Assembly (NCBI GenBank): GCA_016209885.1
Contig: JACQVF010000115.1
Location: 31,472-95,471, forward strand
DNA: 64,000 bases
Direction of reading: 5' to 3'
Origin: Gemmatimonadota bacterium
Lineage (GTDB): Bacteria; Gemmatimonadota; Gemmatimonadetes; Longimicrobiales; Gaopeijiaceae
The position numbers and the translations under genes were made by a program. Positions 2,262 to 58,820 of the stretch are shown here, piece after piece (positions within the stretch are counted from its first letter, which is position 1; every line of letters begins with the position of its first letter). The notes below the pieces were generated by a model that was given only the letters and a program-made list of their open reading frames with translations, did no database searches and was not told the origin of the DNA.

Positions 2262-4010
2262 GTGACCGTGGCCACTCTGGTCTCGGCGCCGAAGCCCCGC
2301 TGGTCCGTTGCAGCGCCCCCGGACCCGGAGGTCGTGCGGCGGCTGGTGGGGGAGCTCCACCTTCCTGAGCCCATGTGCGCGCTCCTCGCTGTCCGGGGCT
2401 ACGGCGATCCCGAGGCCGCGAAGGCGTTCCTGCGGCCGCGGCTCGACCATCTGCATCCACCGGAGCTCCTGACGGACGCGGAACGCGCGGTGACGCGGAT
2501 CGCACGGGCCGTGGAGCAGGGTGAGAAGATCCTGGTCCATGGCGACTACGACGTGGATGGTGCGTGCGGGACGGCGCTGCTCACGCGGTGGCTCCGCGAG
2601 CTAGGCGGCCGGACGGTGCCGTTCGCGCCGCACCGGCTGCGCGACGGCTACGATTTCGGGGAGGCGGGACTGGCCGCGGCGGCGGCAGCGGGCGCCACGC
2701 TGGTGGTGACTGTGGACTGCGGGGTCACGGCGGGGGACGCCATCGCCAGGGCGGCGAGCCTCGGCATCGACGTGATCGTCACGGACCATCATCGCCCCGG
2801 GGAGCAGCTTCCCCCGGCTGCCGCGGTGGTGAACCCGAACCGCGAGGACTGCGGCTACCCGGAGAAGGGCCTCTGCGGCACGGGTGTCGCATTCAAGTTG
2901 TGCCAGGCGCTGGCGCGCCGCTTCGATCGGCCCGACAGCGAGCTGTATGCACACCTGGACCTGGTTGCCCTCGCCACCGTGGCAGACCTGGTCCCGCTCA
3001 CCGGCGAGAACCGTGTGCTGACGCGCTTCGGCCTCCGGGTCCTGGAGCGCACGCGCAAGCCCGGGCTGCGTGCGCTCCTCCGGGTCACGGGACTGCAGAA
3101 CCACCGGCTGGACGCCGGCCACGCGGCCTTCGTGCTCGCCCCGCGGATCAACGCAGTCGGGCGACTCGCGAATGCGCGGACCGCGGTCAAGCTTCTGCTG
3201 ACGGACGACGATGCGGAGGCCGAGGCGCTGGCCGCCACGCTGGACGCCTGGAATCGAAGCCGGCAGGACGAGGACCGCCGGACCCTCGACGACGCGCTCG
3301 AGCTCCTGGCCGGGGACTTCGATGCAGAGTCGCATTTCGGGATCGTGCTGGCCTCCGAGCGGTGGCACCCGGGGGTCATCGGGATCGTCGCGTCGCGCGT
3401 GGTGGAGCGGGTCCACCGGCCGACGGTTCTGGTGGCGCTCTCGGGCGAACGCGGCCGCGGAAGCGCTCGCTCGATTCCGGGCTTCCACCTCTACGAGGCG
3501 CTGGTGGCCTGCCGCCGATACCTGTTGCGGTTCGGCGGTCACCGCTACGCGGCAGGGATGGACGTGCGGCGGCGTGAGCTGCCGGCGTTCCGGGAAGCGT
3601 TCAACCGCGAGGCCGCGGAGCGCCTGCGGGGCTTCGACCTGCGCCCGGAGATCGCGGGCGACTTGGAGATCATCCTGGGCGACCTCACGGAGGATCTGCA
3701 CCACTATCTTCACTACATGGGCCCCTTCGGGCTGGGGAATCCGCGGCCGGTCTTCATCTCGAGGGCCGTGGAGGTGGCGGTGCCGCCGCGGGTCGTCGGC
3801 CGCGGCCACCTCAAGCTCGAGCTCGCGCAGGACGATCGCCGCATGGACGCGATCGGGTTTCGTCTCGCGGATCGGCTCGGCATGACGGCCGCGGCGGCGG
3901 GCAGAGCCGTGGACGTCGTGTTCCATTTGCACGAGAACCGACACCGCGGCGCGCGGACCCTCCAGGCGAAGCTTCTCGACCTCCAGCCTCCAGGCCGCGG
4001 GCCAACCTGA
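2262..4010 (+). CDS. recJ: Single-stranded-DNA-specific exonuclease RecJ
   Basis: DHH motifs (ILVHGDYDVDGACGTALL, DVIVTDHH) and DHHA1-like region; ~580 aa. Confidence 0.9.
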   Translation: MTVATLVSAPKPRWSVAAPPDPEVVRRLVGELHLPEPMCALLAVRGYGDPEAAKAFLRPRLDHLHPPELLTDAERAVTRIARAVEQGEKILVHGDYDVDGACGTALLTRWLRELGGRTVPFAPHRLRDGYDFGEAGLAAAAAAGATLVVTVDCGVTAGDAIARAASLGIDVIVTDHHRPGEQLPPAAAVVNPNREDCGYPEKGLCGTGVAFKLCQALARRFDRPDSELYAHLDLVALATVADLVPLTGENRVLTRFGLRVLERTRKPGLRALLRVTGLQNHRLDAGHAAFVLAPRINAVGRLANARTAVKLLLTDDDAEAEALAATLDAWNRSRQDEDRRTLDDALELLAGDFDAESHFGIVLASERWHPGVIGIVASRVVERVHRPTVLVALSGERGRGSARSIPGFHLYEALVACRRYLLRFGGHRYAAGMDVRRRELPAFREAFNREAAERLRGFDLRPEIAGDLEIILGDLTEDLHHYLHYMGPFGLGNPRPVFISRAVEVAVPPRVVGRGHLKLELAQDDRRMDAIGFRLADRLGMTAAAAGRAVDVVFHLHENRHRGARTLQAKLLDLQPPGRGPT

Positions 4011-4057
4011 CGGGTCGCTGAAGAACTCCGGCGAGCTGCCAAGGGGAATGGGGCGGC

Positions 4058-8781: not shown

Positions 8782-9609
8782 ATGCCCGCGAAGCGCTCGC
8801 TGGGCCAGAACTTCCTGGTCAACAGCAACCTGCAGCGGAAGATCGTGGACGCCTTGGGCACGGGGCCTGAGGACGAGGTGCTCGAGATCGGCCCCGGCCA
8901 CGGCGAGCTCACGCAGCACCTCGCCGGCAGCGTTCGGCGGCTCACGCTCGTCGAGCTCGACGATCAGCTCGCCGGCGCACTCGCGGAACGCTACCACGGA
9001 CGCGAGGACGTGGTGGTCCTTCATGGCGACATCCTGGACATCCCGCTCGCGGCGGTCAGCGCGAAGCCGCAGCGGCTGAAGGTTCTGGGTAACATCCCCT
9101 ACAACCGTACCACGCCGATCCTCTTCAAGCTGCTGGAGCGCTCGCGCCCGGCCGAGATCGTCGTGATGGTGCAGAGGGAGGTCGCCGATCGCATCCTTTC
9201 CCCGCCCGGGTGCCGCACGTACGGCGCGCTGAGCGTCGGACTGCGCAGCGTTGCGCGGGTGGAGCGCCTGCTCAACATTCCCCGCGGCGCGTTCCGACCG
9301 GCGCCGACCGTGGACTCCACCGTGATCCGCATCCGGCCCTATGAGCCCGCCCCCCTCACGCCCGCGGAGGAACACGACCTGCGGCGGCTGACCCGTGCCG
9401 CCTTCCGCTTGAGACGAAAGCAGTTGCAGAAGATCCTCCGCAGCTCCGGCGAGTACGAGCTGGACGCCGATGACGTCGAGGCGCTGGCCCGCGAGACCGG
9501 CTTCAACCTGAGCCAGCGCCCGGAACAGCTCTCCCCCGAGGAACTCATCCAGCTTGCGCGCGCCATCACACGGCACGAGGCGCGGAAGCGGGAACTGCGA
9601 AAGGCGTAA
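8782..9609 (+). CDS. rsmA: 16S rRNA (adenine1518/1519-N6)-dimethyltransferase
   Basis: LGQNFLVN, VLEIGPGHGELT and NIPYN motifs of KsgA. Confidence 0.9.
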   Translation: MPAKRSLGQNFLVNSNLQRKIVDALGTGPEDEVLEIGPGHGELTQHLAGSVRRLTLVELDDQLAGALAERYHGREDVVVLHGDILDIPLAAVSAKPQRLKVLGNIPYNRTTPILFKLLERSRPAEIVVMVQREVADRILSPPGCRTYGALSVGLRSVARVERLLNIPRGAFRPAPTVDSTVIRIRPYEPAPLTPAEEHDLRRLTRAAFRLRRKQLQKILRSSGEYELDADDVEALARETGFNLSQRPEQLSPEELIQLARAITRHEARKRELRKA

Positions 9610-9637
9610 TGGAAGGCGTGGGCGCCGGCGTGAGACC

Positions 9638-11023
9638 ATGAGCGAGGTGGGAATCCGGACCGACGGCGCGGCGGGCGAACACCCGCGGCTGCGGGCGCTC
9701 GGGCTGCATCGTCGCGAGCTCCGCGCCTGGGCGATGTACGACTGGGCGAACTCCGCCTTCGCGACCACGGTCATGGCCGCGGTGCTGCCCATCTACTACG
9801 TCCGAGTGGCCGCCGCAGACCGACCCCCCAACGTCGCGCTGGCGTACTGGAGCTACACCGCATCCGTCAGCCTGCTGCTCATCGCCATCGCGTCCCCCGT
9901 GCTGGGGGCAATGGCCGATTACCTGGGGGCCAAGAAGCGGTTCCTGGCCGGGTTCGTGGGGCTCGGCGTCGTCGGTACCGCCTGCCTCTACTTCGTGAGC
10001 CGCGGGGACTGGCTCCTCGCCTCCATCTGCTTCCTCGTGGGGAACGCCGGGTTCGCCGGATCCATCATCTTCTCGGACGGCCTATTGCCCCACATCGCCC
10101 GCGCCGACGAGATCGACCGCGTATCGGCCGGCGGCTGGGCCCTGGGCTACGTGGGGGGCGGACTCCTCCTGCTCATCAACCTGATCATGATCCAGCGGCC
10201 GGGGCTCTTCGGCTTCGCCGATGCCGCCGCGGCTACCCGTGCGGCCTTCGTCACCGTCGCGGTCTGGTGGGCGGCCTTCTCCGTTCCCATCCTGCGCTCC
10301 GTCCCCGAGCCGCCGCGGCGGTTGCAGGCCGCCGAAGCCCTCCACGCGAACGCGATCCGCGTGGCGTTCCGCCGCCTCCATGAGACCGTCGGCGAGATTC
10401 GCGAGTACCGCGAGGTCGTCACGATGCTGGTCGCATTCTGGTTCTACTCGGACGGCATCGGCACCATCATCAAGGTCGCAGCCGCCTATGCCACCTCCAT
10501 CGGCATCATCGGCGAGGCGTCGCTCCTGGGCGCGCTCCTCTTCGTCCAGCTCGTGGGCATACCGTTCACCTTCCTCTTCGGCACGCTCGGCGACCGCATC
10601 GGCGCAAAGAGCGGGATCTACCTGGCCCTGGGCATCTACGTGCTCATCGCGATGCTGGGATACTTCATGACCCGGGCCTGGCACGTCTGGGCGCTCGCCT
10701 TCGGGATCGGCATGGTCCAGGGTGGCGCACAGGCCCTCAGCCGCTCCCTCTACGCCACCATGATTCCGCGCACGAGATCGGCAGAGTTCTTCGGGTTCTT
10801 CAGCGTCTTCGAAAAGTTCGCCGGAATCGCCGGACCCGCATTGTTCGGACTCGTCAGCCAACTGACCGGCACCGGACGCCTCGGCATCCTCTCGCTGCTC
10901 GTCTTCTTCCTCGGCGGAATCCTCCTCCTCACTCGCGTGGATGTGAAGGAGGGAAGGCGAGTCGCCCGTCTCGAGAACGCCAAGCTCGCACCCGCCTCAA
11001 CCCCGAGCCCGCCGATCCTCTAA
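9638..11023 (+). CDS. MFS transporter (UMF1/MFS_1-like)
   Basis: ATG at 9638 inside the longer ORF. About 12 predicted hydrophobic segments; 461 aa. Confidence 0.7.
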   Translation: MSEVGIRTDGAAGEHPRLRALGLHRRELRAWAMYDWANSAFATTVMAAVLPIYYVRVAAADRPPNVALAYWSYTASVSLLLIAIASPVLGAMADYLGAKKRFLAGFVGLGVVGTACLYFVSRGDWLLASICFLVGNAGFAGSIIFSDGLLPHIARADEIDRVSAGGWALGYVGGGLLLLINLIMIQRPGLFGFADAAAATRAAFVTVAVWWAAFSVPILRSVPEPPRRLQAAEALHANAIRVAFRRLHETVGEIREYREVVTMLVAFWFYSDGIGTIIKVAAAYATSIGIIGEASLLGALLFVQLVGIPFTFLFGTLGDRIGAKSGIYLALGIYVLIAMLGYFMTRAWHVWALAFGIGMVQGGAQALSRSLYATMIPRTRSAEFFGFFSVFEKFAGIAGPALFGLVSQLTGTGRLGILSLLVFFLGGILLLTRVDVKEGRRVARLENAKLAPASTPSPPIL

Positions 11024-11096
11024 CCGCGGCAAGAGCGCCGGATCCCGCGGGCCCGGCCGTGTTCCGGGGCACCGCCGGAGCCGCGCCGGCCTCGCG

Positions 11097-11125
11097 TTGA
11101 CGCTTCCCCGCCCGCTCCCTAGCTT
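11097..11125 (+). promoter_or_regulatory. Candidate sigma70-type promoter of rex (TTGACG-17 nt-TAGCTT)
   Basis: Hexamers with 17-nt spacing located just upstream of the Rex box. Confidence 0.3.
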
Positions 11126-11129
11126 GTGT

Positions 11130-11147
11130 TTGTGAACTCTTTCACAA
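11130..11147. promoter_or_regulatory. Rex operator TTGTGAA-CTCT-TTCACAA (autoregulatory site)
   Basis: Perfect match to the canonical Rex box TTGTGAA-N4-TTCACAA, 13 bp upstream of the rex start; a rare AT-rich palindrome in GC-rich sequence. Confidence 0.65.
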
Positions 11148-11159
11148 GCACCCCGGGGC

Positions 11160-11804
11160 GTGGTGAGGGCTGCGGTCGTGCGGAAGATCTCGGATTCTGC
11201 GGTACGTCGGCTGACCCTGTATCTCCGGTGCCTGGAGGAGCTCGAGGGTCAGGGTGCGGAGACGGTATCGAGCGCGGATCTGGCGCGTCGCGGGGGTGTA
11301 ATGCCGGCGCAGATTCGCAAGGATCTTTCGTTGTTCGGGAGCTTTGGCACGCGGGGGCGTGGCTACTCCGTGTCGGGGCTGGCGTGCCGGCTGCGGGAGA
11401 TTCTGGGGCTTTCGCGGGCGTGGCGTCTGGCGCTGGTGGGTGCGGGCCGTCTGGGCTCGGCGCTGTTTGCGTACGACGGGTTTCGGCGTCGGGGCTTCGA
11501 GATCGTTGCGGTCCTGGACGGTGATCCGGCGAAGGTAGGCCGGACATGGAACGGCGTAGTGATCCAGGCGGTGACGGAGCTCGAGCGTGTGGTGAGGGAG
11601 CGGGCGATCGATATCGTAGTGCTGGCGGTGCCTGCGGAGCCGGTGGAGTGGCTGGTGGACCAGGCGGTGCGTGCGGGGGTCCGCGGGGTCCTGAACTTCG
11701 CGCCGACGCGGGTGGATGTGCCGGAGCACGTTACGCTGAGAGACGTGGATCTGGTACTCGAGCTGGAGGCGTTGTCCTTTGGGCTCATGCGGGAGCGGGC
11801 GTAG
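11160..11804 (+). CDS. rex: Redox-sensing transcriptional repressor Rex
   Basis: N-terminal winged-helix region (RRLTLYLRCLEEL), Rossmann NADH-binding GxGxxG (LVGAGRLGSALFAY). Confidence 0.85.
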   Translation: MVRAAVVRKISDSAVRRLTLYLRCLEELEGQGAETVSSADLARRGGVMPAQIRKDLSLFGSFGTRGRGYSVSGLACRLREILGLSRAWRLALVGAGRLGSALFAYDGFRRRGFEIVAVLDGDPAKVGRTWNGVVIQAVTELERVVRERAIDIVVLAVPAEPVEWLVDQAVRAGVRGVLNFAPTRVDVPEHVTLRDVDLVLELEALSFGLMRERA

Positions 11805-11806
11805 CA

Positions 11807-11830
11807 GGTCGCTGTAGCTCTTCAGCGACC
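11807..11830 (+). terminator. Post-stop hairpin GGTCGCTGtAG-CT-CTTCAGCGACC (second copy of the motif)
   Basis: Begins 3 nt after the rex TAG; one mismatch relative to the copy at 1380. Confidence 0.4.
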
Positions 11831-11834
11831 TGCT

Positions 11835-12035
11835 CGTGTCCCGTCCCGGAAGTTCTTTCTGCACCGAGAGCGCCGATGCATCCCGCAGCGCAAGGCGCGA
11901 CCGGGGTCCCCACGCAACGAAGGTTGCGTGGGGTGAGGGCGACGAAGGAATCGCAGCGCTATTTCGAGGAGGAGCAACCGAGCGATGCGGGATGCAGCGC
12001 CGATCGAATGCCAAGGCATGTCTGGGACGGGACAC
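11835..12035. repeat. ~200-bp intergenic element made of nested inverted repeats (possible MITE or structured RNA)
   Basis: Outer 12-bp inverted repeat GTGTCCCGTCCC / GGGACGGGACAC, an inner 11-bp pair TGCATCCCGCA / TGCGGGATGCA, and a central 11-bp hairpin CCCCACGCAAC-gaagg-GTTGCGTGGGG. Confidence 0.45.
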
Positions 12036-12038
12036 TAG

Positions 12039-12839
12039 GTGTTGTTGCTGGAGCGTGCGGTTGAGGTGCTCCACGCGGGGCCCGCATCGACGGCGGAGCT
12101 GGCGTCCAGGGTACTGGGTCTCACGGGGCATCCGGGTGCTGCGGCCAGCGCGGTCTTCGCGTTGCTGGGTGCGGACCCCCGTTTTCAGGTGGACGGGAAC
12201 GGGGTGTGGAGCCTTCGGGTGGGTCCCGGGTCGGCCGCCCGTCTCGAGCAGCTGGAGTACGCGGTGGTGGACGTGGAGACCACCGGCGGCTCTGCGGCGC
12301 GCGGGCATCGCATCACCGAGGTCGCGGTGATCGAGCTCTCGGGCGGCGAGGTCTTGGGGGCGTACCGGACGCTGGTGAATCCCGGTCGGCCGATTCCCCG
12401 ATGGGTCACGCGGCTTACCGGGATCACGGATGACATGGTGCGGAACGCGCCCCCGTTCGAGGCGATCGCGCGCGACGTGTACGGCCGGATGGCGGGGCGT
12501 GTCTTCGTGGCACACAACGCGGCGTTCGACTGGCGCTTTGTCACGGCACAGCTCTCTGTGGGGCTGGGTGCAGTTCCGAACGCTCCGGTACTCTGCACGG
12601 TGCGCATGGCCCGGCGCCTGCTCCCTGAGCTGCGGCGCAGGAACCTGGATGCCCTTGCGGCGCACTTCGGGGTGGAGATCCACGAGCGCCATCGCGCCTA
12701 CGGGGACGCGTTGGCGACGGCCCGTGTGTTCGTGAAGATGCTGGCCCGGGCGCGGGCCGTGGGCATCGGGAGCTGGGGCGACCTCGAGCGCCTGCTTTCC
12801 GGCCGGCTGAGCGCCCCGTCGACCGCCGGGGCGCGATGA
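12039..12839 (+). CDS. DEDDh 3'-5' exonuclease (DNA polymerase III epsilon-like)
   Basis: Exo I-III motifs (AVVDVETTG, VAHNAAFDW, HRAYGDALATARVF) after an N-terminal extension. Confidence 0.7.
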   Translation: MLLLERAVEVLHAGPASTAELASRVLGLTGHPGAAASAVFALLGADPRFQVDGNGVWSLRVGPGSAARLEQLEYAVVDVETTGGSAARGHRITEVAVIELSGGEVLGAYRTLVNPGRPIPRWVTRLTGITDDMVRNAPPFEAIARDVYGRMAGRVFVAHNAAFDWRFVTAQLSVGLGAVPNAPVLCTVRMARRLLPELRRRNLDALAAHFGVEIHERHRAYGDALATARVFVKMLARARAVGIGSWGDLERLLSGRLSAPSTAGAR

Positions 12840-13723
12840 TCGCCCAGCGAGCCGCGGATCTGCCCCTGGTGCGCTCCCGGCGCGTGGGGTCGCTGCCCGT
12901 ACACGTACTGGAAGCGGGGCTCCAGCGCCTGGACGGCGGTGCCATGTTCGGGGTCGTACCGAAGCCGTTGTGGGAGCGGCGGATCCCCCCGGATGAGCGG
13001 AACCGCATCCCCCTCGCGCTGCGCTGCCTGCTCGTGGAGGCGCCGGGCGCGCTGGTGCTCGTGGATACGGGGATCGGGAACAAAGAGGACGAAAAGTTCC
13101 GGGACATCTACGGCGTGGACAACGCGGGGTTGCCCACGCGACTGGAGGACGGTCTCCGGGCGGTCGGGTTCGCGCCCGAAAGCGTGGACATCGTGGTGAA
13201 CACGCACCTCCATTTCGATCACGCCGGCGGCAATACGTGGCGGGCGGAGCATAGTGAGTTGCTCCCCTCGTTCTCAAGGGCGCGCCACTACGTGCAGCGG
13301 GGCGAGTGGGATTTCGCGCATCGGCTCAACGAGCGGACGCAGGCCAGTTATCTCCCGGACAACTTCGATCCCTTGGAGGCGGAGCGTTGGGCCCTGGTGG
13401 AAGGTGAGGTGCTGGTGACGGAGGGGGTCAGGGCGTTTCCGACACCCGGGCACACGCCGCACCATCAGTCTGTGCTGGTGGCGAGCGACGGGGAGGCGGC
13501 GTGCTACCTGGCGGATATCTGCCCCACGAGCGCCCATCTCCCGCTGCCGTGGATCATGGGGTATGACGTGGAGCCGCTGGTCACGCTGGAGACGAAGCGG
13601 CGCGTGCTGGGGCGGGCGCGGCGGGAAGATTGGCTTCTCATCTTCGAGCATGATCCAGAGGTGCCCTGGGGCCGGCTGGATCCCGAATCGGATCGTTACC
13701 AGTTGAGGGCGGAGGAGGCGTAG
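12836..13723 (+). CDS. MBL-fold metallo-hydrolase
   Basis: HxHxDH motif (THLHFDHAGGN) and a downstream His (PGHTPHH). Confidence 0.75.
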   Translation: MIAQRAADLPLVRSRRVGSLPVHVLEAGLQRLDGGAMFGVVPKPLWERRIPPDERNRIPLALRCLLVEAPGALVLVDTGIGNKEDEKFRDIYGVDNAGLPTRLEDGLRAVGFAPESVDIVVNTHLHFDHAGGNTWRAEHSELLPSFSRARHYVQRGEWDFAHRLNERTQASYLPDNFDPLEAERWALVEGEVLVTEGVRAFPTPGHTPHHQSVLVASDGEAACYLADICPTSAHLPLPWIMGYDVEPLVTLETKRRVLGRARREDWLLIFEHDPEVPWGRLDPESDRYQLRAEEA

Positions 13724-32820: not shown

Positions 32821-32893
32821 GGCGGCGTAGCTCAGCTGGTAGAGCAGCGGAATCATAATCCGTGGGTCGGGGGTTCGAATCCCTCCGCCGCTA
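32821..32893 (+). tRNA. tRNA with CAT anticodon (elongator Met or lysidine-modified Ile2; not initiator-like)
   Basis: Manual cloverleaf: acceptor GGCGGCG/CGCCGCT, D-arm GCTC-AGCTGGTA-GAGC, anticodon stem GCGGA/TCCGT, loop ATCATAA (CAT), T-arm GGGGG-TTCGAAT-CCCTC, discriminator A. No encoded CCA. The anticodon stem lacks the three G-C pairs of initiator tRNA. Confidence 0.8.
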
Positions 32894-58202: not shown

Positions 58203-58820
58203 ATGGGACAGAGCCGGGAGTTGAAGGCGCTGGAGCTGGACGCGCTGCGCGAGGTGGCGAACATCGGGGCGGGACACGCGGCGACAGCGTTGTCGCAACT
58301 GACGCGGCGCCGTGTGATGATCAACGTGCCCGAGATCCGCCTCGGTCCGTTCCAGGACATCCCGGGGCTCGTCGATGCCGGCGAGGTGACGGTGGCGGTG
58401 GTGATGAAGGTGTTCGGCGACCTCACCGGCCGGGTGCTCCTGGCGTTCGGCCGCGGCACGGTCATGAGGCTCGTGGACTGCTTCATGGGACTGGAGCCCG
58501 GCAGGACGCAGACCCTCGCGGAGATGGAGCAGTCGGCGATCAAGGAGGCGGGCAACATCCTCGGGGGCGCCTATCTGAATGCGCTCTCCGAGTTCCTTGG
58601 AATGATCCTCCTGCCGTCTGTGCCGGCGCTCACCCTGGATCTGGCCAGCGCGGTCACCGCGCCCGGAGAGTTCGATGTGCCGGACGGCAACCGGCTCGTG
58701 TTCTGCATCGAGAACCTGTTCCAGGTCAACGCGAGCCAGGGGAACCTCAGGGGCCAGTTTCTCTTTCTCCCGGATGAGCCGGCAGTGCAGGCGATCCTTC
58801 AGGCGATTCGCGTCGGGTGA
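58203..58820 (+). CDS. cheC: CheC-family CheY-P phosphatase
   Basis: Two CheC repeats carrying the E-x3-N-x22-P signature (LDALREVANIGAG, EQSAIKEAGNILGG). Confidence 0.75.
   Translation: MGQSRELKALELDALREVANIGAGHAATALSQLTRRRVMINVPEIRLGPFQDIPGLVDAGEVTVAVVMKVFGDLTGRVLLAFGRGTVMRLVDCFMGLEPGRTQTLAEMEQSAIKEAGNILGGAYLNALSEFLGMILLPSVPALTLDLASAVTAPGEFDVPDGNRLVFCIENLFQVNASQGNLRGQFLFLPDEPAVQAILQAIRVG

Follow-up and report, generated by a model that had tools for sequence, protein, structure and literature searches.

A probable IS630-related miniature inverted-repeat transposable element between rex and an exonuclease gene in a Gemmatimonadota genome

The rex-exonuclease junction and its palindromic element

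A 64-kb stretch of DNA from a metagenome-assembled genome (MAG) of the Gemmatimonadota (contig JACQVF010000115.1; 70% GC), hereafter the window, was analysed around the junction of two plus-strand genes. These are rex, encoding the redox-sensing repressor (11160-11804; Pfam PF06971 and PF02629), and a gene for a DnaQ/RNase T-type 3'-5' exonuclease (12039-12839; Pfam PF00929), which is followed by a metallo-beta-lactamase-fold gene. The spacer between rex and the exonuclease gene measures 234 bp and contains a 200-bp palindromic element (11836-12035, plus strand) that ends 3 nt before the GTG start of the exonuclease. A preliminary description of this DNA had depicted three nested pairs of perfect inverted repeats and had suggested a miniature inverted-repeat transposable element (MITE), a structured leader or non-coding RNA, or a recombination site. 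The first of these suggestions has held up. With a probability of about 93%, we regard 11836-12035 as a non-autonomous MITE with IS630-type ends and no gene of its own, because its ends are common to autonomous IS630 elements, TA duplications flank the family, copies are dispersed over many genomes, and the site is empty in the closest relative.

All three repeat pairs of the preliminary description exist, with some adjustment of their geometry. The outer arms, GTGTCCCGTCCC (11836-11847) and GGGACGGGACAC (12024-12035), are perfect reverse complements (12/12); the right arm had been placed correctly, while the left arm lies one base further right than described. Complementarity reaches 18 nt when two mismatches are allowed (11833-50 / 12021-38; 16/18). 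The middle pair, TGCATCCCGCA (11876-86) and TGCGGGATGCA (11987-97), is likewise real and forms part of a longer 24-nt arm that is 83% complementary (11868-91 / 11982-12005). The 11-bp hairpin, CCCCACGCAAC (11908-18) and GTTGCGTGGGG (11923-33), pairs as described around a loop of 4 nt (GAAG) rather than 5. Nesting applies to the outer two pairs, which are concentric (centre ~11936), whereas the hairpin is centred at 11920.5 and in the predicted fold shares the tip of a long rod with one other branch. Such a rod is predicted on either strand, with fold energies of -133 and -127 kcal/mol for 11800-12045.

When the window copy is compared with its relatives, the three repeat pairs are seen to be transposon ends, a family-wide covarying stem, and a 37-nt hairpin that belongs to the window copy and a few others. 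The left terminal inverted repeat, GTGTCCCGTCCCGG (11836-11849, plus strand), has its first 12 nt near-invariant in 37 aligned copies, and autonomous copies depart from it by at most one base at both ends; the right one, CTGGGACGGGACAC (12022-12035, plus strand), was recognised from the repeat search and the ends of autonomous copies. Inside them stands a stem, P2, with a 5' arm at 11870-11891 that includes TGCATCCCGCA and a 3' arm at 11982-12001 that includes TGCGGGATGCA and the family motif GGATGCA (both plus strand; the 3' arm rests on the repeat search and alignments). The family helices matching this stem (helices 2 and 3 of alignment A3) have compensatory changes at 12 of 13 pairs. The stem leads into a conserved core on the plus strand, of which the 5' motif GCAAGGCGCGAC (11890-11901) is near-invariant in alignments A2 and A3, and the second half (11939-11979) comprises GCGACGAAGG, a variable apical hairpin (11949-63) and TCGAGGAGGAGCAACC. 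Between the two halves of the core the alignments place the extra 37-nt hairpin (11902-11938, plus strand), which includes the 11-bp hairpin and is absent from the majority class of 159-162 nt; without it the window copy would measure 163 nt. On the right, the element is bordered by a TA (12036-12037) that reads TAG with G12038 in the flank table. The corresponding dinucleotide on the left (11834-11835) is now TC, probably through one substitution.

Copies, target duplications and autonomous partners

A scan of one genome per species with the two-arm pattern GTGTCCCGTCCC-N161-191-GGGACGGGACAC, for which we estimate a chance expectation of ~0.1-0.3, matched 11 genome records. Ten of the matches are elements of 185-205 nt, each with the rod fold, from MAGs labelled Acidobacteriota (4), Myxococcota (2), Dormibacterota, Spirochaetales, Thiobacillus and Casimicrobiaceae; the family is thus found in MAGs assigned to five phyla besides the source phylum. 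The eleventh (L007, Polyangiaceae; L-numbers denote fetched loci) lies inside an AMP-binding enzyme gene without TA flanks and was set aside as a chance match. In this genome-scan set, which was not chosen by its flanks, TA adjoins 18 of the 22 ends, mostly as C-TA to the left of a copy and TA-G to its right.

Metagenomes were searched with a one-ended pattern that does specify the flank (CTAG + end + RG), and at least 120 contigs matched. Pairing of ends in the contigs listed gave ~35 short elements, mostly of 159-162 nt with others of 185-205, ~235 and 268 nt, so that the ends of short elements stand 160-270 bp apart. By our count, TA is present on both sides in ~30 of the 35 complete metagenome copies. 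The IS630/Tc1-mariner superfamily is characterised by duplication of a 2-bp TA target within CTAG. The TA duplication is therefore complete at the level of the family, with one base decayed at the window copy.

The copies also behave as a dispersed repeat. Two ends or copies occur together in several contigs, and 32 of 144 exact ends (22%) run off a contig end; contig breaks inside or at the element point to a dispersed repeat, since assemblers break at repeats. One such break concerns the source organism itself: a Logan contig of the same organism with an identical exonuclease gene (SRR12113390_3955507; L001 1-66) begins at element position 135, which hints at further copies in that sample. 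The genes adjoining other copies are unrelated, for example ndk in L008, and stand in either orientation. A single short and unrelated-looking match was obtained from viral contigs, and none from the plasmid collection.

Some further arrangements were seen among the copies. Solo stubs of the terminal repeat, ~28-40 nt long and lacking a second end, immediately precede gene starts at L008 3107-3134 (ndk) and L009 285-~325, the former abutting a complete copy; they were probably left behind by excision or by a second insertion that has since degraded. In L116 (393-567) the end is duplicated (GTGTCCCGTCCCACTGGTGTCCCGTCCCAG), and in L122 a 125-nt element-like piece (1564-1688) follows 2 nt after a full IS630 copy. 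Because its first base is G and its last base C, the element restores TAG (CTA on the other strand) wherever it meets the duplicated TA. According to a crude open reading frame (ORF) heuristic, roughly twelve of the 39 copies lie at a distance of -1 to 4 from the end of a long open frame (e.g. L024 618-779, L065 1394-1555, L097 3001-3160 and L011 752-943); if a copy that enters a TAG stop codon leaves the stop intact and is tolerated for that reason, such positions are what one would predict.

Autonomous partners with the same ends were found at six loci (L031, L032, L036, L070, L086 and L122), as elements of 1142-1191 bp flanked by CTA...TAG, with 0-1 mismatch in 12 relative to the ends of the window copy. 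Translation of three of them (L070, L086 and L122) gave proteins of 359-375 aa that all match NCBIfam NF033545, 'IS630 family transposase', with 259-275 bits (cut-off 100); L086 and L122 also match Pfam DDE_3 (1.8e-20) together with the helix-turn-helix (HTH) models HTH_32, HTH_23 and HTH_29. The transposase gene is carried by ~30 fetched contigs at 50-95% identity, and more than 8000 relatives were present in the protein collection (E<=1e-30), mostly on contigs of 1.1-2 kb.

In intact autonomous copies the transposase frame crosses the right end of the element, where GGG ACG GGA CAC encodes G-T-G-H, the last four residues of the protein. The frame has no stop codon of its own and stops on a TAG or TAA made by the TA target duplication and the next base (L031 69-1259; L032 517-1658, ending in G-T-A-H; L070 644-1813; L086 6772-7932; L122 400-1561). 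Where the TA is followed by C or T, insertion would give a longer protein. The right end is thus coding sequence and presumably also the transposase binding site, and this double role may be why the 12 nt are identical across phyla. A small peptide of the short elements, in frame with the same G-T-G-H end, was considered and dropped, as the conserved ATG in L022 lies in another frame; an ATG stands 10 nt after GGAGGAG in the window copy, whereas in L022 GGATGCA ATG lies ~21-25 nt from a purine run (by eye).

Relatives of the locus were compared at the same junction. The window exonuclease is 100% identical to a protein of a Gemmatimonadota MAG. In the closest database relative (L002; exonuclease 76% identical) the gene order is the same and the rex-exonuclease spacer is 18 bp. 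In three relatives of ~60% identity (L135, L137 and L138) the exonuclease gene overlaps ksgA by 4 nt (two cases) or follows it by 87 nt (one case), and the element is absent. The empty site in these relatives indicates that the element is an insertion in the window lineage and not a leader that belongs to the gene. Moreover, the GTG start of the window exonuclease aligns with the ATG start of L002 in the N-terminal alignment, which places the insertion point 1 nt upstream of the start codon.

Taken together, the window element is bounded on both sides by terminal inverted repeats that belong to a group of insertion sequences of the IS630 family (Tc1/mariner superfamily). By analogy with that superfamily, a transposase from an autonomous copy elsewhere would bind both ends, excise the element and insert it into a TA, preferably within CTAG, with duplication of the TA on each side. 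The window copy would have entered a TA 1 nt upstream of the exonuclease start, in a previously very short junction that probably read ...CCTGC-TA-G-GTG..., and the left TA would later have mutated to TC.

Several observations weigh against this interpretation. The left flank of the window copy is TC, so that the duplication is complete in the family and half complete here. The window holds one copy, a second being found neither by blastn nor with the covariance model described below, and it holds no transposase gene detectable by tblastn with two transposases as queries; the source MAG was not among the matches of the genome scan. The taxonomic labels rest on MAG bins, among which mis-binned contigs could occur. 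Comparison with five autonomous copies also showed the window copy to resemble them in the terminal 12-14 nt and nowhere further inside, so that the ends and the TA signature are what links it to a parent element. A single subfamily (L043, L012 and L029) resembles the last ~30 nt of the autonomous L031, on both arms, and orienting the short elements against the transposase gene gave no consistent orientation. Finally, the interior is conserved, covarying and strand-specific, which a cut-and-paste transposon of double-stranded DNA does not need. Elsewhere in the window, a near-match to the end at 58266 lies inside coding sequence and was discarded, and GGACGGGAC was not enriched.

The conserved fold and competing explanations

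Copies were oriented by their shared inner motifs and then aligned (A2 and A3), the plus strand of the window copy being the 'sense' strand of the family. On this strand the common plan consists of the terminal repeat with a variable extension (stem P1), an internal loop, the variable stem P2, the near-invariant core GCAAGGCGCGACGACGAAG, a short variable apical hairpin, the second core half CGAGGAGGAGCAACGC, and return strands with GGATGCA and GAATGC. The size classes differ by insertions at a small number of internal points; the window copy represents the 163-nt plan plus its 37-nt hairpin. That hairpin (GGGGTCCCCACGC...GCGTGGGGTGAGG) resembles one in the Acidobacteriota copies L003, L009 and L012 (GGGGTCCCCAACGCG...CGCGTTGGGGTGGG), which stands at a different internal position, on the opposite side of the apical hairpin (alignment A2). 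A moved module, a module that arose twice, and recombination between copies are all possible origins for the shared hairpin.

A covariance model (R1) was built from 24 copies of the 160-nt class with the window copy left out. It matches 11836-12035 end to end with 83.8 bits (E=3.8e-16) on the plus strand and 34.4 bits on the minus strand, the extra hairpin falling within a 59-nt stretch that replaces 19 apical model positions. Applied to the fetched loci, the same model also detected additional complete copies and others cut short by the end of their contig. Rfam 15 gave no relevant match around the element (E<=10) and left it unmatched at gathering score in the whole window, where the sole such match was a tRNA gene (32821-32893, plus strand); ten other copy-bearing loci had no relevant Rfam match at E<=1.

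The conservation of this interior raises the possibility that the description of the element as just a MITE may be incomplete. As an addition to the MITE interpretation and not a replacement for it, the element could also carry a functional single-stranded module, probably RNA (or single-stranded DNA), in which the sense-strand rod and its purine-rich core (GCAAGGCGCGACGACGAAG ... CGAGGAGGAGCAACGC) are under selection. We hold this to be tentative, and rather unlikely on present evidence. The module might serve as a processing or stability element in host transcripts, as a site for a host factor, or as an aid to the element or its transposase; at the window locus it would act on the rex-exonuclease transcript. 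Folding with covariation across copies, which the preliminary description had named as a check, showed a fold kept by compensatory changes, with 24 of 41 predicted pairs remaining paired through changes on both sides. These counts were made on a MAFFT alignment that was not fitted to any structure. Paired cells amounted to 93.5%, compared with 75.5% in shuffles (0/500 reaching the observed value) and 31-46% when partners were slid by 1-3 columns.

The fold is also strand-specific. Folding energy is lower on the sense strand in 37 of 39 copies, model scores there are ~2-3 times those of the antisense strand, and the ratio of G.U to A.C, counted as distinct states per pair, is 30:9 for the sense and 11:23 for the antisense strand, each with its own predicted structure. 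The core is near-invariant while the surrounding stems vary, and both of its strands are purine-rich; in our reading of A3 it can be drawn, on the sense strand only, as C-G pairs alternating with three tandem G.A/A.G mismatches. These features suggest selection on a single-stranded form, most simply RNA, and transcribed MITE hairpins can affect neighbouring mRNAs, as with Correia/NEMIS (PMC2229807). Other considerations temper this view. Neither orientation of the copies is favoured with respect to neighbouring genes (19 are co-directional and 22 antisense at gene 3' ends, a weak comparison that depends on a crude ORF heuristic based on third-position GC), and a search of 11000 to 13000, which takes in the window copy and its surroundings, gave neither a sigma-70-like promoter nor an intrinsic terminator. 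Furthermore, the halves of palindromic DNA can stay complementary by DNA-level processes, the copies are related by descent so that covariation counts are not independent events, and part of the energy difference between the strands stems from the shared core.

A different explanation is that the element is a vertically inherited, gene-specific structured leader (a riboswitch-like 5' untranslated region) or small-RNA gene controlling the exonuclease. Its location immediately upstream of the start codon on the same strand, its very stable fold, and the conservation and strand specificity of that fold across the family all agree with this idea. Nevertheless, we consider it very improbable: the closest relative, with its 18-bp spacer, lacks the element at this junction, and so do the three more distant relatives; other copies of the same element stand beside unrelated genes such as ndk, in either orientation; and TA duplications flank the element, to which neither an Rfam match nor promoter or terminator signals could be assigned in the searches given above.

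The recombination-site suggestion of the preliminary description can be widened to include any other palindromic mobile element or site, such as a REPIN with its RAYT, an IS200/IS605-type element, or an integron attC-like site. Conserved ends around a variable interior, with a fold that is kept and strand-specific, do resemble attC sites and REPINs, and one of the two sides seemed to have the more constant CTA flank among the small set of genomes. There is little room for these candidates, however, since none of these types makes a TA target duplication and most copies have TA on both sides, and since identical ends bound elements that encode an IS630-family DDE transposase; the TA duplications and transposase-bearing parents point to transposition and not to a recombination site. 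The core sites of attC are RYYYAAC ... GTTRRRY and the head of REP sequences is GTAG. The ends GTGTCCC...GGGACAC match neither the attC core GTTRRRY nor the GTAG head, and the neighbours of the window element are conserved housekeeping genes, which also speaks against attC. No Y1/RAYT transposase or integrase was noticed beside those copies whose surroundings were read, although this was not a systematic scan.

Lastly, short GC-rich inverted repeats are common at 70% GC, yet chance palindromes can practically be dismissed, in line with the preliminary description, given a fold-energy z-score of -7.6 on either strand (0/200 dinucleotide shuffles being as stable), the E-value of the R1 match, and identical 12-nt ends in dozens of unrelated contigs.

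Known relatives and consequences for the host gene

Among described elements, RUP of Streptococcus pneumoniae, a MITE proposed to be mobilised by IS630-Spn1 (PMC2229807), is the closest in kind to the MITE family considered here, a likeness drawn from descriptions and not from sequence. Both are small, non-coding and dispersed, with IS630-matching ends, TA insertion, mostly intergenic positions and presumed mobilisation in trans. RUP differs in being 107 bp long and confined to one species group, whereas the window family spans 159-270 bp, is GC-rich, occurs in MAGs of six phyla, and has a covarying rod-like fold with a conserved purine-rich core.

In terms of how a transcribed rod could act, the closest parallels would be Correia/NEMIS and ERIC. 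Correia/NEMIS of Neisseria is a MITE of similar size (~105-155 bp), for which transcription as a long hairpin, cleavage by RNase III and altered expression of neighbouring genes have been reported (PMC2229807). The window family differs in that an autonomous partner was found for it. To our knowledge, no autonomous partner is known for Correia elements. ERIC/IRU elements are intergenic and ~127 bp long with longer variants; they are transcribed into long, imperfect hairpins, and their size classes arise by insertions at fixed internal points. The window family shares with them the intergenic imperfect palindrome and the size classes made by internal insertions, while ERIC/IRU has no known transposase partner and no clear target duplication, and is limited to enterobacteria and vibrios.

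The reported target of IS630 is TA within CTAG. The partners described here agree with IS630 and ISY100 in matching the IS630 model, in their DDE_3 and HTH domains, in their length of 1.14-1.19 kb and in their use of TA within CTAG; within this partner group the transposase frame continues across the right end and meets its first stop at the insertion-made TA(G/A). A TA preference is described for ISY100 in PMC2170065 and PMC6400869. The window element itself, unlike IS630/Tc1-mariner elements, lacks a transposase; the Stowaway-type MITEs of eukaryotic Tc1/mariner elements are grouped with IS630 as related systems. Our literature search returned nothing on these ends or on IS630 MITEs in these phyla, but much of the literature and ISfinder lay outside its scope, and calling the family undescribed is therefore provisional.

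Other features of the locus are separate from the MITE. A 15-bp hairpin found by inverted-repeat search, AGCAGGTCGCTGTAGCTCTTCAGCGACCTGCT (11803-11834, plus strand), covers the rex stop codon just outside the element and is lacking in L002. It has a 90% look-alike at 1375-1406, 11 nt past the stop of ORF 159-1367, and a weaker one at 4013-4039, after the stop of ORF 2262-4010; a U-tract was seen at none of the three. These hairpins may form a small repeated post-stop family, REP-like or acting as an unconventional terminator. The wider gene order also varies: an ATG22-like major facilitator superfamily transporter gene (9554-11023) and rex stand between ksgA and the exonuclease gene in the window (8782-12839) and in its closest relative, and the order ksgA-exonuclease-metallo-beta-lactamase-thiolase is found in L135, L137 and L138.

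For the exonuclease gene, the MITE would have replaced the native upstream sequence, which in the relatives is a junction 18 bp past rex, or one overlapping or closely following ksgA. The sole Shine-Dalgarno-like sequence, GGGA (12029-32), sits in the right arm and is paired with the left arm in the predicted rod. If the gene is transcribed from upstream, its mRNA would carry a very stable 200-nt rod that covers this GGGA. Translation of the exonuclease could then be lowered or require RNA processing, in the way reported for Correia elements when they are transcribed (PMC2229807), and an effect of the MITE on the gene is plausible on the basis of this predicted structure.

The MITE accounts for an odd gap of 234 bp in an otherwise tightly packed operon, and it carries a warning for annotation, as the structure is to be read as a transposon and not as a riboswitch. 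More broadly, the family is abundant in soil and sediment metagenomes and breaks their assemblies, and a model of it would help to mask or annotate MAGs. The element is of an ordinary kind, a MITE, but its family is large, crosses phyla and has a folded core of unusual conservation; what lifts it above the routine is this spread across phyla, the maintained strand-specific fold with its purine-rich core, and the borrowed stop codon of its partner. If the fold is indeed a functional module, transposition would have carried it into six or more bacterial phyla, and each insertion would deliver a structured element into host transcripts.

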